The notes below the pieces were generated by a model, which had not been told where the DNA came from, searched no databases, and saw only the letters and a list, made by a program, of their open reading frames with translations. Positions 3,777-35,659 of a stretch of DNA of 64,000 bases are shown piece by piece (position 1 is the first letter of the stretch; each line of letters starts with the position of its first letter). The position numbers and the translations under genes were made by a program. Source of the stretch: Flavobacterium sp. (GTDB lineage Bacteria; Bacteroidota; Bacteroidia; Flavobacteriales; Flavobacteriaceae). Location of the stretch: the NCBI RefSeq assembly GCF_046153165.1, contig NZ_JBJXEN010000010.1, positions 5,995-69,994 on the forward strand. The letters run 5' to 3'.

Positions 3777-3794
3777 AACTATTCTTATTATTTA

Positions 3795-12254: not shown

Positions 12255-12674
12255 CTAATCTTTAAAACGTTCCCATTTTATAAGCATAAATTTATCCCCA
12301 AGTTCGGTTATAACCATACCTGCTCCAGATAATAAATTTTTATTTTTAACATATTCTACAAGCTCTAAATGATTAAATATCTTATAAGTAGGATGGTAAT
12401 CGCCATGAGATGGCTTCTTTATTTTATATTCTTTTACCCAATTACTTACTGTAACATGAGAAACCCCAATAATACGTTCAATTTCTCGATAACTAAGCCC
12501 TTCTAGGTAGAGCTGCATAGCTTTGATAACATAATAATTATCTATCTTTTTACCTAGTTTATTGACTGTAAAATAATAATTACATTTTTTACATAAATAC
12601 CTTTGTTTATTATTGATCACACCACTTTTTACAATAGTATTATTTTGACATTTTGGGCAAGCTAAAATCTCCAT
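12255..12674 (-). CDS. IS1 InsA-like zinc-ribbon + HTH DNA-binding protein, no transposase catalytic domain
   Basis: CPKC-x19-CKKC ribbon with KSG..KQRYLC, HTH GLSYREIERIIGVSHVTVSNWV, unrelated ~55-aa C-terminus. Confidence 0.75.
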   Translation of the reverse strand: MEILACPKCQNNTIVKSGVINNKQRYLCKKCNYYFTVNKLGKKIDNYYVIKAMQLYLEGLSYREIERIIGVSHVTVSNWVKEYKIKKPSHGDYHPTYKIFNHLELVEYVKNKNLLSGAGMVITELGDKFMLIKWERFKD

Positions 12675-12933: not shown

Positions 12934-13539
12934 ATGGAATTTGATCCAGAAAATCTTGAACAATCAGCTATTTATAAATTACTTACAGGAGCTGTCATTC
13001 CACGGCCTATTGGTTGGATATCTAGTGTAAGTGAGGATGGAATAAACAACCTTGCTCCTTTTTCTTTTTTTAATGCGATTGGAGACGATCCTCCTCATGT
13101 CATGTTTTCAACAGTCAGAGGAAATAATACGAATAAGGATACCTTAAATAACGTATTATCTACTAAGCAGTTTGTAGTTAATATGGTTACAGAAGAGTTA
13201 GTTGAACAAATGAATATGACCTCACAATCAATTCCATCTGATGAAAGTGAATTTGAACTAGCTGGTCTTACTCCTATTGCTTCCGTAAAAGTAAAACCAA
13301 TGCGTGTTAAAGAAAGTCCTATTACTTTCGAATGTGAATTAGTTCACCACTACTCATTAGAAAATCACAAATTTGGCGGAGCTACGATGATTGTTGGTAA
13401 AATAATAATGATGCACATTGATGAAAGTGTCTTACTAGATAATTACAAAATAAATATGAATACTTACAAACCTGTAGCTCGTTTAGCAGGTTCAAATTAT
13501 AGCAAAATAGGGGAAATATTTTCAATAAAAAGAAGTTAG
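12934..13539 (+). CDS. Flavin reductase-like FMN-binding split-barrel protein (COG1853/DIM6-NTAB type)
   Basis: VIPRPIGWISS, NLAPFSFFN and KDTLNN motifs. Confidence 0.85.
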   Translation: MEFDPENLEQSAIYKLLTGAVIPRPIGWISSVSEDGINNLAPFSFFNAIGDDPPHVMFSTVRGNNTNKDTLNNVLSTKQFVVNMVTEELVEQMNMTSQSIPSDESEFELAGLTPIASVKVKPMRVKESPITFECELVHHYSLENHKFGGATMIVGKIIMMHIDESVLLDNYKINMNTYKPVARLAGSNYSKIGEIFSIKRS

Positions 13540-13646
13540 CATTTAAAAAAAACATAAAAGAAGGAACACCAATTAGAGAAATCTGACAAATTTCAAAAAT
13601 TATTCTAATTCTTTAATCGGTGATAAAAAAAACATAAACAATAAAA

Positions 13647-13697
13647 AACCGTGTGAATCTGCGTCTTCGCTTTTGCGAATCCGTTTTATCCGCGTTC
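13647..13697. repeat. Intergenic GC-richer element with AATC(C/T)G units and a ttcgc-tttt-gcgaa hairpin
   Basis: Visible in sequence; related AATCTG units recur at 19295-19323. Confidence 0.45.
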
Positions 13698-13707
13698 AAT
13701 TAAAAAT

Positions 13708-15993
13708 ATGAAAATAGCAGTAATTGGTGGTGGTCCAGGAGGACTTTATTTTTCGATATTAACTAAAAAAGCGATGCCTCATTGGCAAATAGACATTTAT
13801 GAACGTAATAAAGCGGACGATAGTTTTGGATTTGGCGTTGTGTTTTCCGATGAGACATTAGGAGAATTCTTAAAACGCGATATGCAATCGTATGAATTAA
13901 TTCGTAGTAAATTTGCCTATTGGGACGATATTGTTGTAGCACGTGATGGAGAATCTGTAAGTATTGCTGGTAATGGTTTTTGCGGTTGCTCTAGAAAAAC
14001 GCTTCTACAGTTGCTGCAACAAAGATGTCTTGAAGAAGGTATAAACCTTCATTTTGAACAAAATGTCGATGATTTATCACAATTCGAAGATGCCGATATT
14101 ATTGTGGCTTGCGACGGAATTGCAAGTGGAATTCGTACTAAATATGAAAAAGATTTTGGTACAAAAATAGAAATGAAAAAAAATCGTTTCGTTTGGCTAG
14201 GATCTACAAAACCTTTAGACGCTTTTACTTATTTCTTCAGAACTACAGAATTCGGAACTATTGTAGCACATTCCTATCAATATGAAGAAGGAATGAGTAC
14301 TTGGATTTTTGAATGTTCCGATGAAACTTGGCAAAAATTTAATTTTGAAGTCACCAATGAAGAAGATACTATTGCTAAAATTTCAGAAATCTTTAAAGAT
14401 GAATTAGATGGTCATCCACTAATTTCAAATAAATCACATTGGCGTCAATTTCCACATGTAACCAATGAGAATTGGTATCATAAAAATATCGTTTTGTTAG
14501 GTGATGCCAAAGCCACAGCGCATTATTCCATCGGTTCTGGAACAAAATTAGCTATGGATTGCGCCATCGGACTTTCTGATGCGGTAATTGCAAATCCAAA
14601 TGATGTGCAAACTGCATTTCAACAATATGATAAAACTAGGAGAAATACAGTCGAAATGATTCAATATGCGGCATTAGTGTCGCTAGACTGGTTCGAAAAT
14701 ATGGATAGAAATAACCAACATCCTTTTCAACAATTTGCTTTCGGATGCATGACACGTTCTAAAAAAGTAACTTTCGAAAATTTGTGTTTACGAGATAAAT
14801 CATTTACAGACAAAGTTTTAGAAGAATTTAATAACAATAATCATGTTGATGACAAAATCCAACCAGCAGCATTTTCAAAATTTAAACTTCGTGATTTAGA
14901 CTTACAAAACCGAATTGCAATGTCTTCTATGGGACAATATTCTGCTGAAAACGGATTGGTAAACGACTGGCATTTCCAACATTACACTTCAAGAGCAATT
15001 GGTGGTTTAGGTTTAATTTTAACAGAAATGACAGCCATTTCTGAAACAGGAAGAATTACAGAAGGTTGTGCCGGAATTTATACTGATAATCAAATTAAAG
15101 AATGGAAACGAATTAACAATTTCATTCATCAACATACACAAACAAAAATCGGAATTCAATTAGGACATTCTGGACGAAAAGGCGCTACAAAAAAACCTTG
15201 GGAAGATACTTTTACTGGAACAAGTTGGGGATTACTTTCCGCTTCTGCTATTCCTTTTAACGAAAGTGCACTAACTCCAAAAGCGATGACTTTAGCCGAT
15301 ATGGATTTGATAATTTCTCAATTCGTACAAGCAACAAAAAATGCTAATGATGCTAATTTTGATATGATAGAATTACAAGCACATCACGGATTTTTATTAG
15401 CTTCTTTCTTATCTCCATTAACAAATAACAGAACTGATGAATTCGGTGGAAGTAACGAAAACCGATTAAAATTTCCATTACGCGTTTTTACAGAAATGCG
15501 AAACGCTTTCCCAAAAGAAAAACCAATGTCTGTACGAATTTCAGCAACAGATTGGGCAGAAAACGGAATTTCATCAGCAGATGTAATTGCAATTTCTGAA
15601 GCTTTTAAATCAGCTGGTGCTGATATTATAAATGTTTCTACTGGAAATACAGTGGCCAATCAAAAAACTCAAACAGGAAGAATGTGGCAAACACCTTTTT
15701 CAGATGCGGTGAGAAATACAGTTCATATTCCAACCATAACGGCTGGTTATATTCAAGATATTGATCAAATAAATACGATAATTCTAAACGGAAGAGCAGA
15801 TTTAGTAGCTTTAGGAAGACCTTTATTATTAGATGCGAATTTTGTAAGAAATGCTCAAGCTTACGAACAATTTCAACCAACTGATATTCCAAATCAATAC
15901 AAAATGGGAATTTCACATTTGTATCCGTTAAAAGCCTCTGAAAGAAAACAGGTTGAAGGAATGAAAAAGGCATTGAAACCAAAGAGTAATTAG
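13708..15993 (+). CDS. Bifunctional aroyl-CoA 5-hydroxylase / OYE-like oxidoreductase (2-aminobenzoyl-CoA monooxygenase/reductase, salicylyl-CoA 5-hydroxylase family)
   Basis: N-terminal GGGPGG, FGFGVVFSD, GDAKATAHYSIGSGTKLA; C-terminal OYE barrel (QLGHSGRK, SPLTNNRTDEFGGS); 761 aa. Confidence 0.9.
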   Translation: MKIAVIGGGPGGLYFSILTKKAMPHWQIDIYERNKADDSFGFGVVFSDETLGEFLKRDMQSYELIRSKFAYWDDIVVARDGESVSIAGNGFCGCSRKTLLQLLQQRCLEEGINLHFEQNVDDLSQFEDADIIVACDGIASGIRTKYEKDFGTKIEMKKNRFVWLGSTKPLDAFTYFFRTTEFGTIVAHSYQYEEGMSTWIFECSDETWQKFNFEVTNEEDTIAKISEIFKDELDGHPLISNKSHWRQFPHVTNENWYHKNIVLLGDAKATAHYSIGSGTKLAMDCAIGLSDAVIANPNDVQTAFQQYDKTRRNTVEMIQYAALVSLDWFENMDRNNQHPFQQFAFGCMTRSKKVTFENLCLRDKSFTDKVLEEFNNNNHVDDKIQPAAFSKFKLRDLDLQNRIAMSSMGQYSAENGLVNDWHFQHYTSRAIGGLGLILTEMTAISETGRITEGCAGIYTDNQIKEWKRINNFIHQHTQTKIGIQLGHSGRKGATKKPWEDTFTGTSWGLLSASAIPFNESALTPKAMTLADMDLIISQFVQATKNANDANFDMIELQAHHGFLLASFLSPLTNNRTDEFGGSNENRLKFPLRVFTEMRNAFPKEKPMSVRISATDWAENGISSADVIAISEAFKSAGADIINVSTGNTVANQKTQTGRMWQTPFSDAVRNTVHIPTITAGYIQDIDQINTIILNGRADLVALGRPLLLDANFVRNAQAYEQFQPTDIPNQYKMGISHLYPLKASERKQVEGMKKALKPKSN

Positions 15994-16008
15994 AAGTAAT
16001 TAGAAATT

Positions 16009-17598
16009 ATGAAACATTACGAAGATAATTTCGCTCACAATAGTTTACCAAGTTTGGACTTACAACCAGAATATAAATTCTTGGGTTTACCACAATTCAA
16101 TCGTCCAGAAATGCTTAATTGTGTGGAAAAATTACTCGACAATCATATAGCTGAAGGTCGTGGAAACAACATTTGCATCAGAACTTTCGAGGAAACTTGG
16201 ACATATCAGGATTTATACGAAAAAGCCAATCAAATAGCACATGTTTTAGTCGAAGATTTAGGTTTAAAATCAGGAAATCGTGTATTGATTCGTTCGGCTA
16301 ATAATCCAATGATGGTCGCTTGCTGGTTTGCAGTGTTAAAAGCTGGCGGAATTGTTGTCGCAACTATGCCTTTGTTACGTTCCAAAGAATTAACTACAAT
16401 TATAGATTGCGCCGAAATTTCTCATGCTTTTTGCGATAGCAATTTATCTGATGAAATGAACTTAGTAAAGTCTAGTTTTCTAAAAAAGGTTTGTTATTAT
16501 AAAAATTCCGATTTAGAGAAGTTGATGGAAACTAAACCAAAAACATTTCATAATTTTCATACCAAAGCAGATTCAGTTGCCCTAATTGGTTTCACTTCAG
16601 GGACTACAGGTCTGCCTAAAATGACAGCACATTATCACAAAGATATTCTTAATATTTGTGAAGCTTTCCCACAATATTCATTACAACCAACTGAAATCGA
16701 TGTTTTTACAGGAAGTCCACCTCTAGGTTTTACGTTCGGATTAGGCGGATTGGTTTTATTTCCCATGTATTTTGGCGCTTCCACATTTTTAATCGAAAAA
16801 CCAAGTCCAGATTTACTTTTAAAAGTCATTGAAGAATACAAAATAACGATTTGTTTTACAGCTCCAACAGCTTGGAGAATTATCACTACAAAAGTGAATA
16901 AATTTAATGTTTCCAGCTTACGCAAATGTATATCTGCTGGAGAAACATTACCCTTAAAAGTTTGGCAAGATTGGTATAATGCTACAGGATTAAAAATCAT
17001 AGACGGAATCGGTGCTACCGAAATGCTACATATTTTTATTTCATCTAACGAAGAAAATATGAAACCAGGATCAACTGGTATAGCAATTACTGGTTATGAA
17101 GCTAAAATTATTGATATAAATGGTGATGAAGTTTCAAGAAATGAACCAGGAAGATTAGCCGTTCGTGGAATTACTGGTTGTAAATACTTAAACCGAGAAG
17201 ACAAACAACGAGAATATGTAGAAAACGGTTGGAACATCACTGGAGATATTTTCCGTCAAGATGAAGAAGGTTATTTTTATTTTGTGGCTCGCGGTGACGA
17301 TATGATTATTTCTTCGGGGTATAATATTGCTGCAATTGAAGTAGAAAGTGTACTTTTAACCCACGAAGATATTCTAGAATGTGCAGTAGTAGGATTACCA
17401 GATGAAGAACGAGGAATGCTAGTTTGTGCACACATTGTTTTAAAAGAAAATGACAAAGCAAACGATGAATTAACTAAAACTATTCAACAATGGTTCAAAG
17501 AAGTAGCTGCTCCATATAAATATCCAAGAGTAATTAATTTTGTAGAAGAATTGCCAAAAACTGAAACTGGAAAAATACAACGATTTAAATTAAAATAA
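16009..17598 (+). CDS. Aromatic acid--CoA ligase, 2-aminobenzoate-CoA ligase (AbmG)-type
   Basis: FTSGTTGLPK, SPPLGFTFGLG, DGIGATEMLHIFIS and LPKTETGKIQRF motifs. Confidence 0.85.
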   Translation: MKHYEDNFAHNSLPSLDLQPEYKFLGLPQFNRPEMLNCVEKLLDNHIAEGRGNNICIRTFEETWTYQDLYEKANQIAHVLVEDLGLKSGNRVLIRSANNPMMVACWFAVLKAGGIVVATMPLLRSKELTTIIDCAEISHAFCDSNLSDEMNLVKSSFLKKVCYYKNSDLEKLMETKPKTFHNFHTKADSVALIGFTSGTTGLPKMTAHYHKDILNICEAFPQYSLQPTEIDVFTGSPPLGFTFGLGGLVLFPMYFGASTFLIEKPSPDLLLKVIEEYKITICFTAPTAWRIITTKVNKFNVSSLRKCISAGETLPLKVWQDWYNATGLKIIDGIGATEMLHIFISSNEENMKPGSTGIAITGYEAKIIDINGDEVSRNEPGRLAVRGITGCKYLNREDKQREYVENGWNITGDIFRQDEEGYFYFVARGDDMIISSGYNIAAIEVESVLLTHEDILECAVVGLPDEERGMLVCAHIVLKENDKANDELTKTIQQWFKEVAAPYKYPRVINFVEELPKTETGKIQRFKLK

Positions 17599-17604
17599 AC
17601 AATA

Positions 17605-19185
17605 ATGAGAAAAGCATTTTTAGTCATAAGTATCACCATTTTATCATTAACAGGAATATTAATTTACGTAAATTGGAAGTTTAGTTTTCTATTATTGATA
17701 TTTATTCCATTAATTATAATGGGATTATATGATATGTTTCAGTCTAAAATTACTATTCGCAGAAACTTCCCACTTTTAGGAAGAATGCGTTATTTATTAC
17801 AATCGATTGGTCCTGAAATGCGTCAATATTTCATTGAAACCGATTTAGATGGAAAACCATTTAATCGTTTACAACGAGATTTAGTATACCACCGAAGTAA
17901 AAAAGAAACTGACTCTATGCCTTTCGGGACACAACTTGATGTGTATCAAGAAGGTTACGAATGGATTAATCATAGTATTCGTTCTATACCTTTCTCGCAA
18001 GTAAACGAAAACCCGAGAGTTCATATTGGATCATCTCAATGTACAAAACCTTATGATGCTAGTTTGTTTAATATCAGCGCGATGAGTTTCGGTTCATTAA
18101 GTAAAAATGCCATTTTAGCGTTAAATAATGGCGCAAAACAAGGAGGGTTTTATCATAATACAGGCGAAGGCGGATTATCTCCTTATCATTTACAAGGTGG
18201 TGATGTAGTTTGGAATATTGGAACTGGTTACTTTAGTTGTCGTACACCTGATGGCAAATTTAACTATGATGAATATATAAAAAGAGCCACTTTAGATAAT
18301 GTAAAAATGATCGAAATAAAATTCTCGCAAGGTGCAAAACCTGGTCATGGCGGAATTTTACCCAAAGAAAAAGTAACTGACGAAATTGCTGCTATACGTT
18401 TAGTTTCTAAAGGTCAGGATATTTTATCACCACCTAGTCATTCTGCTTTTACAACACCTTTAGAATTAATGGATTTTGTAAAATTACTACGAAAAGGTTC
18501 TGGCGGAAAACCAATTGGAATGAAAATTTGCATTGGCAATAAATCAGAATTTTTGTCTATTTGTAAAGCAATGGTCGAAACCCAAACCTATCTCGATTTT
18601 ATCACTGTAGATGGTGGCGAAGGTGGAACTGGAGCAGCACCACAAGAATATTCAGACCACGTAGGAATGCCTTTACGTGATGCCGTAGCCTTTGTTTATG
18701 ATGCTCTAAACGGGTACGGAATAAAAGACCAAATCAAAATTATTTGTAGCGGAAAAGTTATTACTGGATTTGACATCATCAGAAATCTTTCTCTTGGTGC
18801 CGATTTATGTAATTCGGCGCGTGGAATGATGTTTGCACTCGGCTGTATTCAAGCACTAGAATGTCACGCAAATACTTGTCCGACAGGTGTTGCTACACAA
18901 AATCCAGAATTAATGAAAGGATTAGTTCCAGAAGAGAAAAGCGTTCGAGTAGCAAGATTTCAGCACGAAACCGTAAAAAGCGCGATGGATCTAATGGCAT
19001 CAGCCGGAATAGATCATCCAGACAAAGTCGACCGATCAGTTGTCAGCACAAGAGTTCATCTTGGTAAAACACAAACTTTTGAAGAAACATATCCAGAAAT
19101 AAAAACAGGCTCATTATTAGACGGAAGTACCGTTCCCAATGAACTTTTTAAAGTTTGGAAAAAAGCAAGTGTAGATAAATTTTAG
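17605..19185 (+). CDS. Stand-alone FMN-binding glutamate synthase family protein (GltB2/YerD-like) with N-terminal TM
   Basis: SAMSFGSLS, NTGEGG, EIKFSQGAKPGHGG and CIQALECHANTCPTGV [3Fe-4S] motif. Confidence 0.9.
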   Translation: MRKAFLVISITILSLTGILIYVNWKFSFLLLIFIPLIIMGLYDMFQSKITIRRNFPLLGRMRYLLQSIGPEMRQYFIETDLDGKPFNRLQRDLVYHRSKKETDSMPFGTQLDVYQEGYEWINHSIRSIPFSQVNENPRVHIGSSQCTKPYDASLFNISAMSFGSLSKNAILALNNGAKQGGFYHNTGEGGLSPYHLQGGDVVWNIGTGYFSCRTPDGKFNYDEYIKRATLDNVKMIEIKFSQGAKPGHGGILPKEKVTDEIAAIRLVSKGQDILSPPSHSAFTTPLELMDFVKLLRKGSGGKPIGMKICIGNKSEFLSICKAMVETQTYLDFITVDGGEGGTGAAPQEYSDHVGMPLRDAVAFVYDALNGYGIKDQIKIICSGKVITGFDIIRNLSLGADLCNSARGMMFALGCIQALECHANTCPTGVATQNPELMKGLVPEEKSVRVARFQHETVKSAMDLMASAGIDHPDKVDRSVVSTRVHLGKTQTFEETYPEIKTGSLLDGSTVPNELFKVWKKASVDKF

Positions 19186-19264
19186 AAGCTATTTCCAGCT
19201 TTACACTGCAATCTTTTTATTTTTAAAGAAAAAATAAAAAGGATTTCCGTTTCAATCTGGGCTA
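19186..19264 (+). repeat. 79-bp REP/MITE-like palindromic repeat, copy A
   Basis: 65/79 identical without gaps (manual count) to the reverse complement of 47859-47937; central hairpin. Confidence 0.8.
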
Positions 19265-19337
19265 AAATTTTAGTAAAGAACAATGATTAAATAAAATCTG
19301 TGCTAATCAGTCTAATCTGTGGCAAAAAATAAAGAAT

Positions 19338-19766
19338 ATGAACCAACCGTTTATAAAACAAGAAAAAATCCGTTTCAAACACATCGACTACGCAGGAATA
19401 GTTTTCTATCCGCGTTTTCTAGAAATGCTAAATGACTTAGTAGAAGATTGGTTCGAAGAAGCATTAGACAGACCATTTTCTAAAATGCACGAAACCAATG
19501 GAATTCCAACGGTCGATTTGAAAGTACAATTTAAAAAAGCGGCCCGATTAGGAGAAATTCTAACCAAAAAATTATGGGTAAAAAATCTTGGTAGCGCATC
19601 AATTTTATGTGGATTTTCATTTGAAGATGAACAAGGAAAAACTTGTTTAGAAGGTGAGGTTACTTTGGTAAATATTGTTTTTCAGGAAAATAAAAACGAT
19701 ATCAAAGCAGAACCTTTTAACGAGGAAATGAAAGAAAAAATTTCAAATTTCATTCAAAATGATTGA
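19338..19766 (+). CDS. Acyl/aroyl-CoA thioesterase (4-HBT hotdog family)
   Basis: HIDYAGIVFYPRF catalytic Asp motif; 142 aa. Confidence 0.88.
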   Translation: MNQPFIKQEKIRFKHIDYAGIVFYPRFLEMLNDLVEDWFEEALDRPFSKMHETNGIPTVDLKVQFKKAARLGEILTKKLWVKNLGSASILCGFSFEDEQGKTCLEGEVTLVNIVFQENKNDIKAEPFNEEMKEKISNFIQND

Positions 19767-20397
19767 ATTTAAAACATTTATGAGTTTAACTGATTCTTCT
19801 GTTGCCGAAGAAATGATTCAGATTTTGAAAGTAAATAAAATTGCTTTCAAAATACAGGATACGTCAAAAGATTTTGATGCTACTTTTGCTAATAATACAG
19901 CACAGGATTCTATACTTATTATGCTTAATCCCAATGATTTTGATAAAGCTTCTAGAATACTGGATGAGAACATGCAGTTTAATATTAATGAAATTGATTC
20001 TCTTCATCCACTTTTTTCTTTCACTATAGATGAACTAAAAGATGTTGTGAAAAATTATGATGAATGGCATCCTTTAGATGTTAAATTGGCTAAGCATCTT
20101 TTAAAAAATGAGAGTATAACCGTTGAAGATTCCGAAATTATTGACAAACAACTTCAAAAAGAAATTAAATCCCAACAACCTGAAAAATCAAATTCATTAA
20201 CCCTTATTATGGGTTACGGTTTTTGTATAATGGGTGGCTTAGCGGGAATTGGAATTGCAATATTCTTATTAACTGGAAAAAGAACTATGACAGATGGTTC
20301 AAAAAAATATATTTACTCAAAATCTGATAGAGTTCACGGTGTATATATGCTTATTGCTGGCACTGCTGTTTTTCTTTCATTATTTATTTTAAATTAA
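19759..20397 (+). CDS. Hypothetical membrane protein (DUF2007-like N-terminus, two C-terminal TMs)
   Basis: AEEMIQILKVNKI..DTS pattern, DEWHPLD, two hydrophobic helices; overlaps thioesterase stop. Confidence 0.55.
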   Translation: MIEFKTFMSLTDSSVAEEMIQILKVNKIAFKIQDTSKDFDATFANNTAQDSILIMLNPNDFDKASRILDENMQFNINEIDSLHPLFSFTIDELKDVVKNYDEWHPLDVKLAKHLLKNESITVEDSEIIDKQLQKEIKSQQPEKSNSLTLIMGYGFCIMGGLAGIGIAIFLLTGKRTMTDGSKKYIYSKSDRVHGVYMLIAGTAVFLSLFILN

Positions 20398-20404
20398 ATC
20401 GACA

Positions 20405-21385
20405 ATGGAATTCAAAAAATTTAAAGCAGCAACCGTTCAAACTTCACCTGTTTTTCTAAACGTTGAAAAAACAGTTGAAAAAGCGATTACATTTATCAAA
20501 GAAGCCAGTCAAAATGGAGCGCAATTAATTGCTTTTCCAGAAGTATTTGTGGCAGGTTATCCGTATTGGAATTGGATTATAACACCAGTTCAAGGTAGCA
20601 AATGGTACGAAAAACTATACAAATGTTCTGTCAAAACAGACGATGAAGCCATGCAACCTTTGTTTCAAGCAGCAAAAGACAACAACATTCACATTGTAAT
20701 CGGAATTAACGAACGTGGTGATTCTTATGGTGAAATTTACAATACTAATTTAATCATTGATAATCACGGAAACTTAATCGGAAAACACAGAAAGTTAGTA
20801 CCCACTTGGGCAGAAAAACTTACTTGGACTTCTGGAGATGGTTCTTCATTAAAAGTATATAATACAGAAATTGGTCCCATTGGAACTTTGGCTTGTGGTG
20901 AAAACACGAATACTTTAGCGCGTTTCACATTACTATCTCAAGGGGAATTAATTCACATTGCGAATTATATTTCGTTGCCAGTGGCACCACCAGATTATAA
21001 TATGGCGGAAGCGATAAAAATTCGTGCAGCGGCACATTCTTTCGAAGGGAAATTGTTTACGATTGTTTCGTGTTCAACGATTTCTAAAGAAATTATGGAA
21101 GCGTTAAAAGATGATGTTCCGAATGTGGAAGAATTATTAACTCGTAAGAACTCCGCTTTTTCAGGCTTTATTGGTCCAAATGGCGCTGTAATCGGCGAGC
21201 CATTAATTGACGACGAAGGAATGGTGTATGCCGATATCGATTTAGAAAAATGCATTCAACCAAAACAAATGCACGACATTCTCGGACATTATAATAGATT
21301 TGATATCTTTGATTTGCGTGTAAACATTGCTCCAACTCGAAAAATCACGTTTATAGACAATCACGAGGAATTTAATAAAAGATAG
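20405..21385 (+). CDS. Carbon-nitrogen hydrolase (nitrilase/amidase superfamily)
   Basis: Glu-Lys-Cys triad in FPE, HRKLVPT and LACGEN. Confidence 0.9.
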   Translation: MEFKKFKAATVQTSPVFLNVEKTVEKAITFIKEASQNGAQLIAFPEVFVAGYPYWNWIITPVQGSKWYEKLYKCSVKTDDEAMQPLFQAAKDNNIHIVIGINERGDSYGEIYNTNLIIDNHGNLIGKHRKLVPTWAEKLTWTSGDGSSLKVYNTEIGPIGTLACGENTNTLARFTLLSQGELIHIANYISLPVAPPDYNMAEAIKIRAAAHSFEGKLFTIVSCSTISKEIMEALKDDVPNVEELLTRKNSAFSGFIGPNGAVIGEPLIDDEGMVYADIDLEKCIQPKQMHDILGHYNRFDIFDLRVNIAPTRKITFIDNHEEFNKR

Positions 21386-21397
21386 CATTAAAATACT

Positions 21398-22516
21398 ATG
21401 GAAGATAAATTTTCAGATGACCAAATTGGTCGTGCAAGAGTACAAGATTCGCCAGAATTAGTAGCGTATTACAAAGAGTTAGAAACGCTTGGCGCTGGTG
21501 CATTATGGACAGTGGCTAACGACATTGAACCTTGGGAACCAAGATCATCATCTGTTCCAATGCTTTGGAAATATGACGATTTACGTGAATTAGTTTTAAA
21601 ATCATCGGAATTAGTTACACCAGAACAGGCAGGAAGACGTGTAGTTTATTTAGTAAACGATAAACGTAAAGATGTTTCTGCAGCTGTGGGTTGGTTGTAT
21701 ACTGGAATACAAGTGACTCGACCTGGAGAAAGTACTTCGGCGCATCGTCATCGTGCTTCTGCTTTACGCTTTATCATGGAAGGCGAACGCGGATATACTG
21801 TTGTAGATGGTAATAAAATCATGCTAGAAGTAAACGATTTTGTAATTACACCTAATTCGACTTGGCACGAACACGGAGTTGAACAAGGTGGAAAAACATG
21901 CATTTGGCAAGATGGTTTAGATATTCCTTTAGTAAATGCGCTTGAAGCCAATGATTATGCCGTTTATGATGGCAAACAACCTCTAACAGTTCCTGTTAAT
22001 TATTCTCCAATATTATATGGGGGAGCTGGTTTGATCCCAGCCGATAAAACTTGGGACAAACCCTATTCACCATTATTTAAATATTCTTGGAAGAACGTAT
22101 ATCCAGCACTTTTAGAAGCTCAAAAAGTATCAGAAGTGAATCCTTTTGATGGAATTTTTATGCAATATTCCAATCCATTAACTGGCGGCCACGTAATGCA
22201 AACTATGGGAGCATCGATGCAATTATTGCCAGCTGGTTTCAAAGGAAAAGCACACAAACATACAGGTTCAATCGTATATCAATGTGCTAAAGGAAAAGGT
22301 TATTCTATCATTAACGGAAAAAGATACGATTGGAAAGAACGTGATATTTTCTGTGTTCCATCTTGGGCTTGGCACGAACATCACAATTTATCTGAAACGG
22401 AAGATGCTTGTTTGTTTTCGTTTAATGATTTACCTGTAATTCAATCTTTAGGATTATATCAAGAAAAAATATATGAGGAAAATAAAGGATATCAAGAAGT
22501 TACGATAATACTATAA
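21398..22516 (+). CDS. Gentisate 1,2-dioxygenase-like bicupin ring-cleaving dioxygenase
   Basis: LYTGIQ..PGE..AHRHRASALRF, WHEHG, DGLDIPLV; second cupin with HKHT/WAWHEH. Confidence 0.85.
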   Translation: MEDKFSDDQIGRARVQDSPELVAYYKELETLGAGALWTVANDIEPWEPRSSSVPMLWKYDDLRELVLKSSELVTPEQAGRRVVYLVNDKRKDVSAAVGWLYTGIQVTRPGESTSAHRHRASALRFIMEGERGYTVVDGNKIMLEVNDFVITPNSTWHEHGVEQGGKTCIWQDGLDIPLVNALEANDYAVYDGKQPLTVPVNYSPILYGGAGLIPADKTWDKPYSPLFKYSWKNVYPALLEAQKVSEVNPFDGIFMQYSNPLTGGHVMQTMGASMQLLPAGFKGKAHKHTGSIVYQCAKGKGYSIINGKRYDWKERDIFCVPSWAWHEHHNLSETEDACLFSFNDLPVIQSLGLYQEKIYEENKGYQEVTIIL

Positions 22517-22519
22517 AAA

Positions 22520-23041
22520 ATGTTTAAAAATACAATATATCTATATTTAATTCTATTAACTATAATTTCTTGCAATTCTAAACATGAGAATATGGAACAT
22601 ATGAAGCCATTAACAGTTAATAAAGATTCTATAAAAGTTCCACCTTTTAAAATTCAGTTAAAGTTTTCGGACAAAGCAAATAGAACTTTAAAAAAGGAAA
22701 ATGAAACTATTTTAGTTGATGTTGAATTTATAGGAACTCCTGAATCAAAAATTACTGAAAAATATAAATATGAATATTACGATGAAAACGGACAAGTTAC
22801 AATTGGGAAAAAAATAATTGAAGTAACCAAACAGAGTGAAATAAAATTTGATAATTGTAAAGTATCCAAAGGCTTATTAGAATTGCTCAAAAACAAAACA
22901 TATAATGTTAGAATTACTATTGTAAGTGGCAGAAAGACATCTGAGGATAATTTGCTATACTGTGATTTTATAGAGCAAAATATTGAGAAAATTAGAAATA
23001 AAACTATAAAGATAAACGGCAAGTTAATTGAGGAAGAATAA
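22520..23041 (+). CDS. Hypothetical lipoprotein
   Basis: Lipobox-like IISC after a hydrophobic leader; very AT-rich. Confidence 0.6.
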   Translation: MFKNTIYLYLILLTIISCNSKHENMEHMKPLTVNKDSIKVPPFKIQLKFSDKANRTLKKENETILVDVEFIGTPESKITEKYKYEYYDENGQVTIGKKIIEVTKQSEIKFDNCKVSKGLLELLKNKTYNVRITIVSGRKTSEDNLLYCDFIEQNIEKIRNKTIKINGKLIEEE

Positions 23042-23243
23042 GCATTGCAAATAAAAATCGTTTACTGTAAGTTAAAGTCTAAATTTGATGTTGGCTTTGT
23101 GTTTGGAAAATCACTTATAAATCGATAGTTTTGGATAATTAATCCTCACCTTCAGTAACTGACGGGATATTCAATAATAATTTCAACAATCAATATTAAA
23201 AACCTTAGAACCTTAGTTCCTTTGCAACTTAGAACCTTAAAAC

Positions 23244-24152
23244 ATGAAACTACTTACCTACAAAACATCAGAAACAGAGCCAAGATTAGGATTTATTCAT
23301 AACAATCAAGTTATTGATATGGAAGATTTTGGAGATATTTCTAATTTCCCATTACCAAATGATATGTTGGATTTAATTGATATGGGATTTGAAATTATTG
23401 CAGAAATAAATGATATGATTTCAGAAACAAGTCAAAAACAAATCGATGAAATTAGTTATGCTTTTGATGAAATTACCATCCTTGCTCCTATCGAAAAACC
23501 AAGAAAAAACATCATCGGAATTGGTTTAAATTACACCGAACACGTTGCCGAAAGCGCTAGAACATTAGATACAACAGGAAAATTACCTACAAAACCAATT
23601 ATTTTTTCTAAGCCTACTACAACTGTAACTGGAACAAATACTAACATTATTAAAAACACTAAATTGACCGAACAATTAGATTGGGAAGTCGAATTGGCTG
23701 TTGTTATTGGTAAAAAAGGAAAATATGTAGCTAAAGAAGACGCATTAGATTATGTGTTTGGTTACACGGTAATTAACGATATTTCTGCACGTGATTGTCG
23801 TCGAGAAGGACAATGGATTGTATCAAAAGGGCAAGATACTTTTGCGCCAATGGGTCCAATTATAGTAACCAAAGACGAAATCGAGAATCCACACAACTTG
23901 AATTTATCATTAAAAGTAAATGGTGTTGAAAAACAAAATTCGAATACAAAATTCTTATTGTTCAATATCAATGATTTGATTGAAGATTTAAGTATCGTTT
24001 TCACTTTAGAACCAGGTGATATTATTGCTACAGGAACACCATCAGGCGTTGGAGCAGGAAGAAGCCCACAAGAATTTATGAATGATGGTGATGTGGTTGA
24101 AGCCACTGTAGAAGGAATTGGAACAATTGTGAATACAGTTAAGGAGATTTAG
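23244..24152 (+). CDS. Fumarylacetoacetate hydrolase family protein
   Basis: GIGLNYTEH, LDWEVEL, NDISARD, KGQDTFAPMGP and GDIIATGTPSGVG motifs. Confidence 0.92.
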   Translation: MKLLTYKTSETEPRLGFIHNNQVIDMEDFGDISNFPLPNDMLDLIDMGFEIIAEINDMISETSQKQIDEISYAFDEITILAPIEKPRKNIIGIGLNYTEHVAESARTLDTTGKLPTKPIIFSKPTTTVTGTNTNIIKNTKLTEQLDWEVELAVVIGKKGKYVAKEDALDYVFGYTVINDISARDCRREGQWIVSKGQDTFAPMGPIIVTKDEIENPHNLNLSLKVNGVEKQNSNTKFLLFNINDLIEDLSIVFTLEPGDIIATGTPSGVGAGRSPQEFMNDGDVVEATVEGIGTIVNTVKEI

Positions 24153-24154
24153 AA

Positions 24155-24448
24155 ATGAAATTAAGCAATTCATTTAGCGGAGCTTTAAGGACATTTTCAT
24201 ACTTTATGGCAAGTGGTACTCATTACAATTTAAAGGGAATAAATTATTTAGAACTTTATGGAAATGAACCAAGTGCGATAGAACAAGTTTTTGCAATTTT
24301 TGCAAATGTTATTGAAATGAATGAGAAAGGTGAAGTTTTAAATGCAAAATATGCTGAAATAAGAGCAACAAATTATTTAAAACAATATTGTGACAATTCA
24401 TTTGTTATTGATAAACCTTTTGAAGATTGGGAAATTGAGCTACATTAA
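24155..24448 (+). CDS. Hypothetical protein, 97 aa
   Basis: Clean ORF with 2-nt and 15-nt spacing to neighbours; no motif recognised. Confidence 0.6.
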   Translation: MKLSNSFSGALRTFSYFMASGTHYNLKGINYLELYGNEPSAIEQVFAIFANVIEMNEKGEVLNAKYAEIRATNYLKQYCDNSFVIDKPFEDWEIELH

Positions 24449-24463
24449 CACATTATTTTTAAA

Positions 24464-25213
24464 ATGAAAAAATACAGAATAGGACAAATAGTTCCATCAT
24501 CAAACGTAACGATGGAAACCGAAATACCGGCTATCTTTCGCTCACGTGAAACCATTTTACCAGAACGATTTACTTTTCATTCAAGCAGAATGAGAATGAA
24601 AAAAGTGACCAAAGAAGAGCTCGAAGCTATGGATGCCATGAGTCTTAAATGTGCTCAGGAATTATCTGATGCACATGTGGATGTTATGGGTTATGCTTGT
24701 TTGGTTGCCATTATGAGTATGGGTCGCGGTTATCATTGCGTTTCGGAAATAAATTTACATCAAGAAACTGTAGCGAACGACTTCCCTACTCCAATTGTGA
24801 CTTCTGCTGGAGCATTAATCAATGGATTAAAAGTTTTAGGGGCAAAAAAAGTAGCTATTATTACACCGTATATGCGTCCGTTAACAAATATGGTTGTCGA
24901 TTATATAGAACATCAAGGATTTGAAGTTGTTGATTCAATTGCTTTGGAAATTCCAGATAATTTAGAAGTCGCCGCTCAAGATCCAATGAATTTATTAGAA
25001 ATTTACAAACGTTTAAACTTGGAAGGTGTTGATGTTTTAGTTGCTTCAGCTTGTGTACAAATGCCATCATTAGAAGCGATTGATTTAATTCAAAAGGAAA
25101 TTGGAATTCCAGTTACTTCTGCTGCAGTTTGTACTACGTATGAAATGATGAAAAAATTAGGTATTGAAGCTAAATCTGCTATTGGTGGCGAATTATTAAG
25201 CGGAAAATATTAA
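24464..25213 (+). CDS. maiA: Maleate cis-trans isomerase (Asp/Glu racemase superfamily)
   Basis: GQIVPSSNVTMETE, YACLVAIM and SACVQMP (two catalytic Cys). Confidence 0.9.
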   Translation: MKKYRIGQIVPSSNVTMETEIPAIFRSRETILPERFTFHSSRMRMKKVTKEELEAMDAMSLKCAQELSDAHVDVMGYACLVAIMSMGRGYHCVSEINLHQETVANDFPTPIVTSAGALINGLKVLGAKKVAIITPYMRPLTNMVVDYIEHQGFEVVDSIALEIPDNLEVAAQDPMNLLEIYKRLNLEGVDVLVASACVQMPSLEAIDLIQKEIGIPVTSAAVCTTYEMMKKLGIEAKSAIGGELLSGKY

Positions 25214-25225
25214 AATATAATTATT

Positions 25226-25267
25226 AAAAAAAATCCTGAAGTTTTTGAAGCTTCAGGATTTTTTTTT
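25226..25267. terminator. Bidirectional terminator between maleate isomerase and rho
   Basis: A8-tcctgaag / cttcagga-T9 stem-loop. Confidence 0.85.
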
Positions 25268-34618: not shown

Positions 34619-35659
34619 TTATTTGATATATTCTATTTTTTGAACCTCTTCAGCATTTACACTATCAAAAAAGCCTTGAGCACTCATCCATTCGTCACTA
34701 AATACTTTACTCATATAACGAGAACCATGATCTGGAAAAATAGCAATTACATTGCTGTTTTCATTAAACTCTCCTTCTTCGGCATACTGCAAAATAGCTT
34801 GCATAACTGCTCCTGAAGTATATCCTACAAAAAGTCCTTCGGTTTTTGCAATATTTCTTGTCATGTGAGCACTTTCTTCATCGGTCACTTTGACAAATTT
34901 ATCAATCAAATCAAAATCAGTAGCAGTAGGAATTAAGTTTTTTCCCAAACCTTCTATTCTGTATGGGTAAATTTCATCATTATCAAACTCTTTTGTTTCG
35001 TGGTATTTTTTTATCACAGAACCATAAGCATCTACTCCTAAAATTCTAATATTTGGATTTCTTTCTTTCAAAAACTTTGCAGCACCAGAAAGTGTTCCTC
35101 CTGTTCCTGTACAAGCAATTAAGTGTGTTATGTTTCCGTTCGTTTGTTCCCAAATTTCTGGACCTGTACTTTTATAATGTGCTTCAATATTTAAATCATT
35201 AAAATATTGATTGATATATACTGAGCCTTTTGTTTCTTCGTGTAAACGCTTTGCTACATTATAATAAGAACGCTCATCATCAGCAGATACATGAGCTGGA
35301 CAAACATATACTTTTGCTCCCATACTACGCAACATGTCAATCTTGTCGGCAGATGATTTAGAGCTTACTGCAAGTATACAATCATAGCCTTTTATAATAC
35401 TAACCATAGCCAAACTAAATCCTGTATTACCAGAGGTCGTTTCTATAATTGTATCTCCAGGCTTGAGTATTCCTTGTTTTTCCGCTTCTTCGATAATGTA
35501 TAACGCAATTCGGTCTTTAGTAGAATGTCCAGGATTAAAGGCTTCCACTTTAGCATAAAAGTTACCTTTTAAATCTTCGGTAATTTTATTGATTTTAATA
35601 AGTGGTGTGTTACCTATTAGTTCTAAAACGTTATTGTATGCTTGTATATTTTGTTTCAT
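34619..35659 (-). CDS. PLP-dependent cysteine synthase / cystathionine beta-synthase family protein
   Basis: [17 protein letters not shown] (PLP Lys), TSGNTG and GTGGT motifs. Confidence 0.9.

Follow-up and report, generated by a model that had tools for sequence, protein, structure and literature searches.

A conserved Flavobacterium operon with a gentisate dioxygenase-type enzyme and a nitrilase-family hydrolase: a proposed route of aerobic anthranilate catabolism

In the 64,000-nucleotide stretch of Flavobacterium sp. DNA analyzed here (the window), ORF calls and family profile searches identified an operon of 12 ORFs at positions 12934 to 25213, all on the plus strand. These data establish which genes are present, how far they are conserved, and their homologies and genomic contexts; the substrates, especially that of ring cleavage, and the place of the nitrilase step are inferred from them. 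Our tentative reading is that the operon serves aerobic catabolism of anthranilate (2-aminobenzoate), with the ring being cleaved while the nitrogen is attached and the nitrilase step coming afterward. In this scheme, the ligase would convert anthranilate to anthraniloyl-CoA, the two-domain flavoprotein would hydroxylate it at C5, and the 4HBT thioesterase would yield free 5-hydroxyanthranilate. The GDOsp-type bicupin dioxygenase would cleave the C1-C2 bond with the nitrogen still on, and the FAH enzyme would remove pyruvate. The nitrilase-family enzyme would then hydrolyze the C4 amide left over (maleamate, or the nitrile corresponding to it), releasing ammonia and yielding maleate, which the maleate isomerase would convert to fumarate. 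Anthranilate is a product of tryptophan and indole, and the cluster most likely degrades it by an undescribed route that pairs gentisate-type ring opening with nitrogen release by a nitrilase-family enzyme. The original prediction had asked whether the literature already holds this exact route, and no description was found in the open-access papers searched.

Operon layout and conservation

The features of the operon and its flanks are listed in Table 1. All seven genes named in the original prediction were found, co-oriented on the plus strand, but that list was incomplete, since five more ORFs are present (the flavin reductase, the GltS-type protein and three small inserts). The accompanying statement that the proposed route accounts for every enzyme therefore did not hold, as the conserved flavin reductase and the frequent GltS-type protein had been missed. 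The predicted terminator at the cluster end was recovered as a hairpin with 19-nt arms (95% complementary) and a 3-nt loop, preceded by an A-tract and followed by a T-tract, and is common to the operon, at the end of maiA, and the convergent rho gene. Acyl-CoA dehydrogenase, enoyl-CoA hydratase and isomerases of the GST or mycothiol type are absent from the cluster, in agreement with what had been predicted.

Table 1. Features of the operon and adjoining genes (window positions)
Feature	Position	Strand	Match or remark
MFS metabolite/H+ symporter	9277..10815	-	TIGR00883, 372 bits; possible uptake gene
DcaP-like porin	10843..12150	-	PF19577 DcaP; possible uptake gene
139-aa Zn-ribbon + HTH protein (IS1 InsA-like)	12255..12674	-	divergent from operon; candidate regulator
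Flavin reductase-like protein, core gene 1	12934..13539	+	PF01613, E=2.6e-24
Two-domain acyl-CoA 5-hydroxylase, AbmA/SdgC type	13708..15993	+	PF01494 (FAD_binding_3) + PF00724 (OYE)
Aryl-CoA ligase, most likely anthranilate-CoA ligase (AbmG type)	16009..17598	+	homology
Membrane-anchored GltS-type FMN protein, accessory	17605..19185	+	PF01645, E=1.6e-85
4HBT-fold acyl-CoA thioesterase	19338..19766	+	PF13279 + PF03061
212-aa protein, C-terminal TM helices, sporadic insert	19759..20397	+	no family match
Branch-1 nitrilase-family C-N hydrolase	20405..21385	+	PF00795; proposed nitrogen-releasing step
Bicupin gentisate-1,2-dioxygenase (GDO)-type dioxygenase, GDOsp clade	21398..22516	+	PDB 3BU7, 1.3e-157
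173-aa lipoprotein-like ORF, insert	22520..23041	+	no family match
FAH-family acylpyruvate hydrolase	23244..24152	+	PF01557, E=1e-69
DUF7677 protein, insert	24155..24448	+	PF24725, E=6e-41
Maleate cis-trans isomerase	24464..25213	+	PDB 4FQ7 and 4FQ5, 2e-95
Bidirectional intrinsic terminator	25226..25266		hairpin between maiA and rho stop codons

Conservation was evaluated in 59 Flavobacterium species loci with sufficient flanking sequence. Eight core genes (flavin reductase, AbmA/SdgC-type hydroxylase, CoA ligase, 4HBT thioesterase, nitrilase, GDO, FAH hydrolase and maleate isomerase) occurred in identical order in 55 of the 59 loci, an arrangement far beyond chance. Taken singly, the FAH and maleate isomerase genes were present in all 59, the thioesterase in 58 and the flavin reductase in 56. 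Among 539 related loci, the best 80, all of Flavobacterium type, had nitrilases of 87 to 99% identity. The GltS-type FMN protein, which has a hydrophobic N-terminal segment and contains a C-x5-C-x4-C-P motif, was found in 31/59 loci and in none of the proteobacterial loci compared, and the 212-aa transmembrane protein was found in 4/59. Neither the 173-aa lipoprotein-like ORF nor the DUF7677 ORF occurred in any of the 59 other Flavobacterium loci; both are inserts peculiar to the present genome. All four of these non-core genes are accessory or inserted.

Upstream, the divergent 139-aa protein matched only the N-terminal, InsA-like part of the IS1 transposase model NF033558 (77 bits, below the cutoff of 100). 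Orthologues with 81 to 87% identity hold the same divergent position in 14/59 Flavobacterium loci, and the protein is a candidate regulator. The MFS gene was seen upstream in 10/59 loci and the DcaP-like porin in 4/59, and the connection of these two genes to the operon is weak.

Entry of anthranilate

Over its full length, the ligase shared 47.8% identity with ARUE_113p00220 of Arthrobacter Rue61a, an experimentally verified anthranilate-CoA ligase (PMC3534580); identity was 50.2% with the ligase in the Abm-type cluster of R. pomeroyi, which is adjoined by a tryptophan 2,3-dioxygenase gene. Its top PDB match was the anthranilate-CoA ligase AuaEII (4WV3, 9e-79), with benzoate-CoA ligases at 1e-62. 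Because of this 48% identity to a verified enzyme, anthranilate is well supported as the substrate, and the predicted entry from anthranilate, not salicylate, fits these matches. The hydroxylase scored 957 bits, below the cutoff of 1078, against NF006101 ("bifunctional salicylyl-CoA 5-hydroxylase/oxidoreductase"). It was 43 to 45% identical to homologues in Abm-type and in ring-cleavage-type clusters alike, and therefore neither its substrate nor an AbmA versus SdgC subtype is readable from its sequence.

An AbmG-type ligase (48 to 50% identical to Abm-type cluster ligases) and an FAD plus OYE hydroxylase are shared with the Azoarcus evansii Abm system (2-aminobenzoyl-CoA monooxygenase/reductase) and with the Abm-type clusters of Paracoccus, R. 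pomeroyi and Arthrobacter Rue61a. Unlike these systems, the Flavobacterium operon lacks enoyl-CoA hydratase, acyl-CoA dehydrogenase, SDR and RidA, and has a thioesterase, a ring-cleaving dioxygenase, an FAH enzyme, a nitrilase and a maleate isomerase; the Abm/beta-oxidation-type clusters used as controls carried RidA instead and had no dioxygenase, nitrilase or isomerase. Given this difference in gene sets, the ring probably leaves the CoA stage as a free aromatic acid and is then opened oxygenolytically.

Such a release resembles the Sdg route of Streptomyces sp. WA46 and the CehGHI route of Rhizobium sp. X9, which reportedly lead from salicylyl-CoA through gentisyl-CoA to gentisate and likewise use a CoA ligase, a 5-hydroxylase of the same family and a thioesterase, followed by a gentisate-type dioxygenase. 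Unlike in those routes, the ligase is nearest to anthranilate ligases, the genomic contexts indicate amino-aromatic precursors, and the Flavobacterium cluster includes a conserved nitrilase and a conserved maleate isomerase, neither of which is known from the Sdg or CehGHI routes. The thioesterase was 31 to 39% identical to those of the Burkholderiaceae clusters. Flavin reductase homologues (33 to 39% identity) adjoin the ring-cleavage module in Ralstonia, Burkholderia SFA1, Novosphingobium and Aminobacter, and this protein may keep an oxidation-prone p-aminophenol intermediate reduced or provide reduced flavin.

Ring-cleavage module and nitrilase

In Proteobacteria and Actinobacteria (Caballeronia, Burkholderia, Ralstonia, Shinella, Ruegeria and Embleya), a nitrilase-GDO-FAH(-isomerase) module is seen again, in which the nitrilase and GDO are 56 to 64% identical to the window proteins, the FAH enzyme 47 to 57% and the isomerase 63 to 69%. 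The Burkholderiaceae order is GDO-FAH-nitrilase-isomerase, with a 4-nt overlap of the nitrilase and isomerase genes, which are translationally coupled. Isatin hydrolase (PDB 5NMP, E=1e-137) and the CoA-ester-forming IorAB neighbor the module in Proteobacteria; tryptophan 2,3-dioxygenase, kynureninase and an AndR-like regulator do so in Embleya. These neighbors make 2-aminophenyl compounds, supporting such precursors for the module and strengthening the anthranilate reading of the original prediction.

The nitrilase matched the nitrilases 6ZBY (3e-61) and 8UXU and retains the catalytic residues E46, K130 and C164, with an unusual motif, LACGENTNTLARF. It was 62 to 64% identical to cluster-linked proteobacterial orthologues and is retained in loci with no adjoining hydroxylase (those of Embleya, Ruegeria, Shinella and Aminobacter); it thus moves with the lower pathway (GDO, FAH and isomerase) and not with the CoA or entry enzymes. 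A second nitrilase lineage, with the canonical CWENYMP and only 30 to 33% identical, adjoins the same GDO clade in Aminobacter and Novosphingobium, which is convergent recruitment. These data support the nitrilase as an integral, conserved member of the lower pathway and no add-on, bearing out the earlier inclusion of a C-N hydrolase, given its place in the Flavobacterium core and its recurrence with GDO-FAH(-isomerase) elsewhere.

The dioxygenase is an orthologue (60% identity) of GDOsp of Ruegeria (Silicibacter) pomeroyi (SPOA0115), with the same two-site bicupin organization, and the neighboring nitrilase, FAH and isomerase are also the same; IorAB and an aminotransferase complete that context. 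To our knowledge, GDOsp has been studied solely as a gentisate dioxygenase, and no interpretation of its gene context was found in the open-access literature searched. The window enzyme scored 306 bits against TIGR02272 (cutoff, 442) and 267 bits against a 5-aminosalicylate dioxygenase model. The His motifs of both cupin domains were invariant in 79 orthologues, and all equivalents of SDO R83, Q108, H119, H121, R127, H160, H162 and D174 are kept, indicating a canonical GDO active site.

The FAH enzyme (53 to 56% identical to cluster-linked orthologues) had 8SKY as its top PDB match. GDO-type cleavage followed by an FAH-family hydrolase that gives a cis C4 product, without a maleylpyruvate isomerase, resembles the gentisate pathway of Pseudomonas alcaligenes NCIMB 9867, in which HbzF reportedly hydrolyzes maleylpyruvate directly and maleate is then hydrated. 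Unlike in that pathway, the FAH enzyme is only distant to the solved maleylpyruvate hydrolase (6JVV, 7e-29), maleate would be isomerized, and a nitrilase is present. The isomerase (66 to 69% identical to cluster-linked orthologues) is close to P. putida S16 Iso (4FQ7), and the proposed ending, from maleamate through maleate to fumarate, is identical to the maleamate branch of nicotinate, nicotine and picolinate catabolism (NicF/Ami amidase and NicE/Iso isomerase). The maleamate amidases known so far (NicF) are isochorismatase-family and not nitrilase-family enzymes, and the window enzyme, as a branch-1 nitrilase, is of no known amidase type. Unlike in that branch, the isochorismatase-type NicF is absent, with the branch-1 nitrilase homologue in its place, and the C4 unit would derive from a benzene ring via an acylpyruvate, not from 2,5-dihydroxypyridine.

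Exit of the nitrogen and alternative readings

The nitrogen could leave after cleavage of 5-hydroxyanthranilate, which we favor, or before cleavage, with gentisate as the dioxygenase substrate. The latter we consider rather unlikely. It would share the entry through 5-hydroxylation, and maleylpyruvate would then be hydrolyzed directly to maleate and pyruvate, as by HbzF, before conversion of maleate to fumarate. Deamination could fall to the nitrilase, acting on 5-hydroxyanthranilate or its CoA ester, or to hydrolysis of a quinone-imine and re-reduction by the flavin reductase. Early deamination would offer a possible job for this conserved protein and the retained OYE domain. The canonical active site and the identity to GDOsp, which reportedly turns over gentisate (Chen et al. 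2008), agree with gentisate as the substrate but do not settle the choice between it and 5-hydroxyanthranilate. The order nitrilase-GDO-FAH-isomerase, common to Flavobacterium, Ruegeria, Shinella and Embleya, also agrees with early deamination, and direct maleylpyruvate hydrolysis, for which HbzF is the reported precedent, would explain the maleate isomerase without maleamate. Counted against nitrogen-retaining cleavage are also the Flavobacterium nitrilase gene preceding the dioxygenase gene, the flavin reductase without a step in the scheme, and the kept OYE domain, which could give a dearomatized product, as in Azoarcus. Moreover, we know of no GDO that accepts a 2-amino substrate, and classical physiology reported gentisate as an intermediate in Nocardia opaca and Alcaligenes In3, the sequence being anthranilate, 5-hydroxyanthranilate and gentisate. 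The 5-nitrosalicylate dioxygenase does not oxidize 5-hydroxyanthranilate (PMC10306065). Against early deamination stands the persistence of the nitrilase without an adjacent AbmA-type hydroxylase or CoA enzymes in Embleya and Aminobacter, which argues against a CoA-level substrate. Also against early deamination are the nitrilase-isomerase coupling in Burkholderiaceae and the nitrogen-free gentisate cluster examined, an ordinary one of Streptomyces atratus with neither nitrilase nor isomerase. Converting a C4 amide or nitrile to acid and ammonia is native chemistry of the nitrilase superfamily, and we know of none of its members that hydrolyzes an aromatic or enamine C-N bond.

Compared with the favored cleavage of 5-hydroxyanthranilate, two readings with other substrates fared worse. 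The original prediction's own alternative, in which salicylate or another hydroxybenzoate would pass through gentisate (Sdg/Ceh type) and the nitrilase would supply it from an aromatic nitrile such as 2-hydroxybenzonitrile, is very improbable, even though the NCBIfam hydroxylase family is named for salicylyl-CoA, the hydrolase has real branch-1 nitrilase homology and the dioxygenase is GDO-like. It is disfavored by the ligase homology, by the co-variation of the nitrilase with GDO, FAH and isomerase rather than with entry enzymes, and by the module neighbors (isatin hydrolase, tryptophan 2,3-dioxygenase, kynureninase and the AndR-like regulator), all linked to 2-aminophenyl compounds. In addition, IorAB makes the proteobacterial CoA ester from a 2-oxoacid, and therefore a nitrile-to-acid step could not supply that pathway. 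Improbable, though less so, is another amino-aromatic acid or a dearomatized intermediate, for example 3-aminobenzoate via 5-aminosalicylate, with the nitrilase, flavin reductase and GltS-type protein forming a nitrogen-handling subsystem. The score on the 5-aminosalicylate dioxygenase model is consistent with this, as are the two conserved or frequent genes without a role in the anthranilate scheme and the Aminobacter variant, whose glutamine-synthetase-like gene and ACAD-type oxygenase are typical of aromatic-amine routes. The contexts found, however, are specific to 2-aminophenyl precursors, and the ligase homology points to anthranilate.

Architecture and conservation of the operon in Flavobacterium

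Twelve ORFs, all on the forward strand, occupy positions 12934 to 25213, and a strong bidirectional hairpin (25226-25266) lies between the isomerase gene and the convergent rho gene. Family or PDB matches identified all seven genes named in the original prediction, the hairpin agrees with its terminator, and the absences that it listed (beta-oxidation genes and GST- or mycothiol-type isomerases) hold among the 12 ORFs. Its inventory was right in the genes it named but missed five further ORFs.

ORFs of the operon in the window, with their family or structural matches
Product	Position	Strand	Match
Flavin reductase-like protein	12934-13539	+	PF01613
Flavoprotein of 761 aa with an FAD monooxygenase domain and an Old Yellow Enzyme (OYE) domain	13708-15993	+	NF006101 (bifunctional salicylyl-CoA 5-hydroxylase/oxidoreductase), 957 bits (below cutoff, 1078)
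Benzoate-CoA-ligase-family ligase	16009-17598	+	TIGR02262
GltS-type FMN protein, hydrophobic N-terminus	17605-19185	+	PF01645
4HBT thioesterase	19338-19766	+	PF13279, PF03061
212-aa membrane protein	19759-20397	+	no family match
Nitrilase-superfamily enzyme	20405-21385	+	PF00795
Bicupin dioxygenase	21398-22516	+	PF07883, TIGR02272
173-aa lipoprotein-like ORF	22520-23041	+	no family match
FAH-family hydrolase	23244-24152	+	PF01557
DUF7677 protein	24155-24448	+	PF24725
Maleate isomerase	24464-25213	+	PDB 4FQ7, 2e-95

Relatives of the nitrilase were found at 539 or more loci in a collection with one genome per species, and the best 80 of these were all of the Flavobacterium type (87 to 99% identical). 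The core of the operon was defined by mapping the window proteins onto those 80 loci, with counts taken from the 59 that had enough flanking DNA. The neighbourhood search proposed in the original prediction showed that the gene set recurs: eight core genes (flavin reductase, hydroxylase, CoA ligase, thioesterase, nitrilase, dioxygenase, FAH hydrolase, and isomerase) are found in identical order in 55/59 loci, and the dioxygenase, FAH, and isomerase genes are each present in all 59. The GltS-type gene is found in 31/59 and the 212-aa membrane protein in 4/59, and neither the lipoprotein-like ORF nor the DUF7677 gene is found in any of the 59. Flavobacterium difficile KDG-16, F. amnicola LLJ-11, and F. 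urocaniciphilum DSM 27078 are among the carriers in culture. Unrelated small genes sit between the core genes, different ones in each species, and the three small ORFs of the window fit this pattern. By sequence reading, the inserts in the Flavobacterium-type loci (L001-L080) include SRPBCC-like, secreted alpha/beta hydrolase, approximately 117-aa helical, and approximately 205-aa transposase-like proteins, as well as a methyltransferase and T9SS-type secreted proteins. The operon therefore seems to tolerate or attract small-gene insertions. In the GltS-type protein, a membrane anchor at the N-terminus is combined with a C-x5-C-x4-C-P motif resembling the 3Fe-4S site of glutamate synthase; the protein, encoded in roughly half of the Flavobacterium operons and in none of the proteobacterial ones, may handle an amine/imine or ammonia.

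The flanks of the operon consist of unrelated housekeeping genes that differ from species to species, and therefore the cluster moves as a unit. No kynurenine or tryptophan genes turned up near the cluster, either in the window itself or in the flanks of the Flavobacterium loci. A sequence lookup gave no prior record of the exact window nitrilase, and a check of public data for RNA evidence found the sequence in DNA metagenomes only. Divergently upstream of the operon (12255-12674, minus strand), a 139-aa protein with a Zn ribbon and an HTH resembles solely the InsA part of the IS1 transposase. Its conservation at that position in 14/59 other Flavobacterium species (81 to 87% identical) led us to reject the reading of this gene as an IS1 remnant; it looks like a domesticated InsA-type regulator. 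Further upstream (1869-5702, minus strand) lie two tandem 635-aa acyl-CoA synthetase genes, one matching acetate-CoA ligase (945 bits) and the other a propionate-CoA-ligase-like paralogue (735 bits, below the cutoff). In approximately 15 other Flavobacterium loci, too, the operon has an acs gene as its neighbour on the upstream side. A match to the cysteate synthase CapA above the cutoff (34619-35659, minus strand; NF053679, 652 bits versus 600) indicates that the genome probably makes capnine-type sulfonolipids, like gliding Bacteroidota. One contig labelled "MAG: Bifidobacterium breve" (L075, CALPIE020000018.1) carries a full Flavobacterium-type operon, with a nitrilase 88% identical to that of the window, and is almost certainly mis-binned.

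The module in other taxa and the entry substrate

A tblastn search with the nitrilase against plasmids and megaplasmids showed that it adjoins the same dioxygenase clade in many taxa. Caballeronia SBC1 (locus L082), Burkholderia SFA1 (L083), and Ralstonia solanacearum SL3103 (L088) carry genes for IorA, IorB, thioesterase, hydroxylase, dioxygenase, FAH, nitrilase, isomerase, and MarR; a "cyclase" gene is also present in the first two and a flavin reductase gene in the last two. In Shinella (L084) and Ruegeria pomeroyi DSS-3 (L081), IorAB and the thioesterase are encoded divergently from the nitrilase, dioxygenase, FAH, and isomerase, and the Ruegeria dioxygenase is GDOsp itself, the gentisate dioxygenase of known structure (PDB 3BU7; SPOA0115). 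The actinobacterial locus of Embleya (L091) encodes tryptophan 2,3-dioxygenase (368 bits on TIGR03036), kynureninase (248 bits on TIGR01814, at the cutoff), and an AndR-like regulator, followed by the nitrilase, dioxygenase, FAH, and isomerase. Identity to the window proteins across these loci is 58 to 64% for the nitrilase, 57 to 65% for the dioxygenase, 47 to 56% for FAH, and 63 to 69% for the isomerase. The flanks in Embleya and Novosphingobium hold extra ORFs without family match, probably wrong-frame reads in high-GC genomes. In the open-access literature, the locus tags of the R. pomeroyi module have received passing mentions only, in two papers.

In the proteobacterial clusters, IorAB stands in place of the ligase. 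IorAB is a 2-oxoacid:ferredoxin oxidoreductase that forms CoA esters. At L082 (3094-6770 and 14701-15480), L083, L084, and L088, genes for IorA and IorB accompany the module, and all of these loci but that of Ralstonia SL3103 also encode a true isatin hydrolase; the Caballeronia "cyclase" is a genuine isatin hydrolase (PDB 5NMP, E = 1e-137). This association suggests a route from isatin via isatinate to anthraniloyl-CoA in Proteobacteria, with IorAB performing the isatinate step. The auxin and indole degradation literature surveyed assigns no enzyme to that step, and IorAB, if this reading is true, would be the missing one.

The window ligase is 47.8% identical over its full length to ARUE_113p00220 of Arthrobacter sp. 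Rue61a, shown by experiment to be an anthranilate-CoA ligase (PMC3534580). It shares 50.2% identity with the ligase encoded in the Abm-type cluster of R. pomeroyi (Abm being the 2-aminobenzoyl-CoA route known from Azoarcus), which adjoins a tryptophan 2,3-dioxygenase gene. Its best PDB match is the anthranilate-CoA ligase AuaEII (4WV3), with benzoate-CoA ligases behind, and it is closest to anthranilate-CoA ligases in a comparison set that holds no salicylate ligase sequence. By these resemblances, it is a predicted anthranilate-CoA ligase of the AbmG type. Elsewhere, the lower module adjoins genes for isatin hydrolase, tryptophan dioxygenase, kynureninase, and the AndR-like regulator, which all point to 2-aminophenyl compounds. 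Given the ligase identities, its best PDB relative, these neighbours, and the exchange of the ligase for IorAB, anthranilate is quite probably the substrate of the Flavobacterium operon. A hydroxylase of the acyl-CoA 5-hydroxylase type, a thioesterase, and a dioxygenase of the gentisate dioxygenase (GDO) type are all present and conserved. The hydroxylase, of FAD_binding_3 plus Oxidored_FMN architecture, is 43 to 45% identical to AbmA-type and ring-cleavage-cluster homologues alike, so its subtype is not discriminated.

Ring cleavage, the nitrilase, and the release of nitrogen

The window dioxygenase matches PDB 3BU7 at 1e-157 and TIGR02272 with 306 bits, below the cutoff of 442. All known substrate- and iron-binding residues of GDOs and of the Pseudaminobacter dioxygenase SDO have equivalents in it, and its clade does not differ from ordinary GDOs by any substitution at the known substrate-binding positions; therefore, the ring-cleavage substrate is not decidable from sequence alone. 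Both cupins carry a full HxH...H metal motif (H116/H118/H157 and H286/H288/H326), invariant in 79/79 aligned orthologues, GDOsp among them, and the C-terminal motif is missing from the E. coli GDO and from SDO. The nitrilase-linked clade is thus the "two-iron-site" GDO clade.

The window nitrilase matches PDB nitrilases and cyanide dihydratases at 1e-48 to 3e-61 and has the catalytic motifs PEVF (E46), HRKL (K130), and ACGE (C164), as befits a branch-1 nitrilase homologue. The cluster-linked clade carries LACGENTNTLARF at the position of CWE in most nitrilases. The residue after the catalytic Cys, usually Trp, is Gly in the window nitrilase and Ala in NitA of EBC191; C-G-E was rejected as diagnostic because NitA, an arylacetonitrilase, has C-A-E.

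Across loci, the nitrilase partners the dioxygenase, FAH, and isomerase rather than the entry enzymes, and it is retained without an adjacent hydroxylase or ligase in Embleya, Ruegeria, and Shinella. Its gene overlaps that of the isomerase by 4 nt in Caballeronia and Burkholderia SFA1, and the two are translationally coupled in Burkholderiaceae. Aminobacter and Novosphingobium have a different, canonical CWENYMP nitrilase lineage (30 to 33% identical) beside the same dioxygenase clade. As controls, an ordinary gentisate cluster of Streptomyces atratus lacks both nitrilase and isomerase, and Abm/beta-oxidation clusters carry RidA instead of the nitrilase. The linkage pattern, the isomerase coupling, the second nitrilase lineage, and both controls speak for the nitrilase as the enzyme that releases nitrogen in the lower pathway. 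Anthranilate entry and a nitrilase integral to the lower module, as originally proposed, are favoured, and the position of nitrogen loss is not decided by sequence. The alternative then offered, a salicylate route into which the nitrilase feeds an aromatic nitrile, is argued against, since the nitrilase tracks the lower module and such a feed-in could not supply the IorAB-based entry.

In the proposed order of steps, the dioxygenase would cleave 5-hydroxyanthranilate first and the nitrilase would afterwards hydrolyse the C4 amide. We give nitrogen release after ring cleavage, nitrile sub-variant included, slightly less than an even chance. Hydrolysis of a C4 amide would fit the native chemistry of the nitrilase superfamily, and gene order together with the nitrilase/isomerase coupling in Burkholderiaceae favours this sequence of events, as do the independence of the nitrilase from the CoA enzymes and its strict pairing with maleate isomerase, which by analogy recalls nicotinate-type maleamate branches. 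Against it, the active site is GDO-like, GDOsp is reported to be active on gentisate, and we know of no GDO that accepts a 2-amino substrate; moreover, direct hydrolysis of maleylpyruvate would yield maleate without any amide. Physiological studies also report gentisate as an anthranilate intermediate. Deamination before ring cleavage, with gentisate then being cleaved, would provide a function for the conserved flavin reductase and for the OYE domain, but it has no known precedent in the nitrilase enzyme family, and we consider it rather unlikely.

Within post-cleavage release, the ring-opened imidate formed from 5-hydroxyanthranilate could eliminate to a nitrile, 3-cyanoacryloylpyruvate, instead of the amide. 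FAH would then release pyruvate and cis-3-cyanoacrylate, which a true nitrilase would turn into maleate and ammonia. The occurrence of two branch-1 nitrilase lineages, and no amidase family, beside the dioxygenase clade suggests such a product, which would in turn explain why these separate lineages were recruited. We regard this variant as improbable; if true, nitrile formation by an aromatic ring-cleaving dioxygenase would be known here for the first time.

Relation to known pathways

The operon resembles the Abm pathway in its predicted AbmG-type ligase; however, enoyl-CoA hydratase, acyl-CoA dehydrogenase, and SDR genes are absent among the 12 ORFs, whereas beta-oxidation genes are present in the Abm-type clusters of Paracoccus and R. 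pomeroyi. With the Sdg/Ceh route from salicylyl-CoA to gentisate, it shares a hydroxylase of the acyl-CoA 5-hydroxylase type, a thioesterase, and a GDO-type dioxygenase. Unlike the classical gentisate pathway, the cluster contains no GSH-, mycothiol-, or Cys-dependent maleylpyruvate isomerase domain. The maleate cis-trans isomerase (PDB 4FQ7 and 4FQ5, 2e-95) is common to the nicotinate (Nic) branch, but the isochorismatase-family amidase NicF is absent from the cluster, where the sole C-N hydrolase belongs to the nitrilase superfamily (PF00795); the Nic-type ending would thus use a non-orthologous C-N hydrolase. Because it lacks beta-oxidation genes, a maleylpyruvate isomerase, and a NicF-type amidase, the operon is a member of no single family. 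It would combine four known pieces: an Abm entry, the Sdg/Ceh succession of CoA-ester hydroxylase and thioesterase, ring opening of the gentisate type followed by direct hydrolysis of the acylpyruvate, and a Nic ending. We conclude that the operon is a real feature with strong conservation and a wide distribution, and that it is a combination of known kinds of pathway.

Anthranilate is a hub in the degradation of tryptophan, indole, auxin, quinoline, and the PQS signal. To our knowledge, the steps after the hydroxylase in CoA-dependent anthranilate pathways have never been resolved. A gentisate-type route from anthranilate has been described in physiological reports since 1968 and 1983, without genes, and a 2018 review lists its genes as unknown. 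In the open-access literature, we found no paper that ties anthranilate or gentisate to a nitrilase, to maleamate, or to this gene set; descriptions elsewhere are possible. The cluster touches two questions of anthranilate and indole catabolism that have long been open, as a concrete candidate gene set for the gentisate-type route and for the post-hydroxylase steps. It also places an orphan nitrilase clade, and GDOsp with its solved structure, in a physiological setting. Hundreds of Flavobacterium species carry the cluster, and Proteobacteria associated with plants and algae, such as Ralstonia solanacearum, Burkholderia, and roseobacters, carry it as a module. The cluster suggests how flavobacteria of freshwater and soil could draw carbon and nitrogen from aromatics derived from tryptophan.

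Related clusters were also observed. On plasmid pAA02 of Aminobacter aminovorans (L092, 11989-21420), genes for the dioxygenase, FAH, nitrilase, and flavin reductase, the last two overlapping by 1 nt, are followed by those for an M29 peptidase, an ACAD-type oxygenase, an alpha/beta hydrolase, and a glutamine-synthetase-like protein, without a maleate isomerase; this cluster probably encodes a related lower pathway that acts on a different aromatic amine. The cluster of the verified anthranilate-CoA ligase on Arthrobacter Rue61a pAL1 (L087, 4481-11394) also encodes a small monocupin, a thioesterase, RidA, and an FAH-family protein 34% identical to the window FAH, and therefore a third variant of CoA-dependent anthranilate breakdown may exist.
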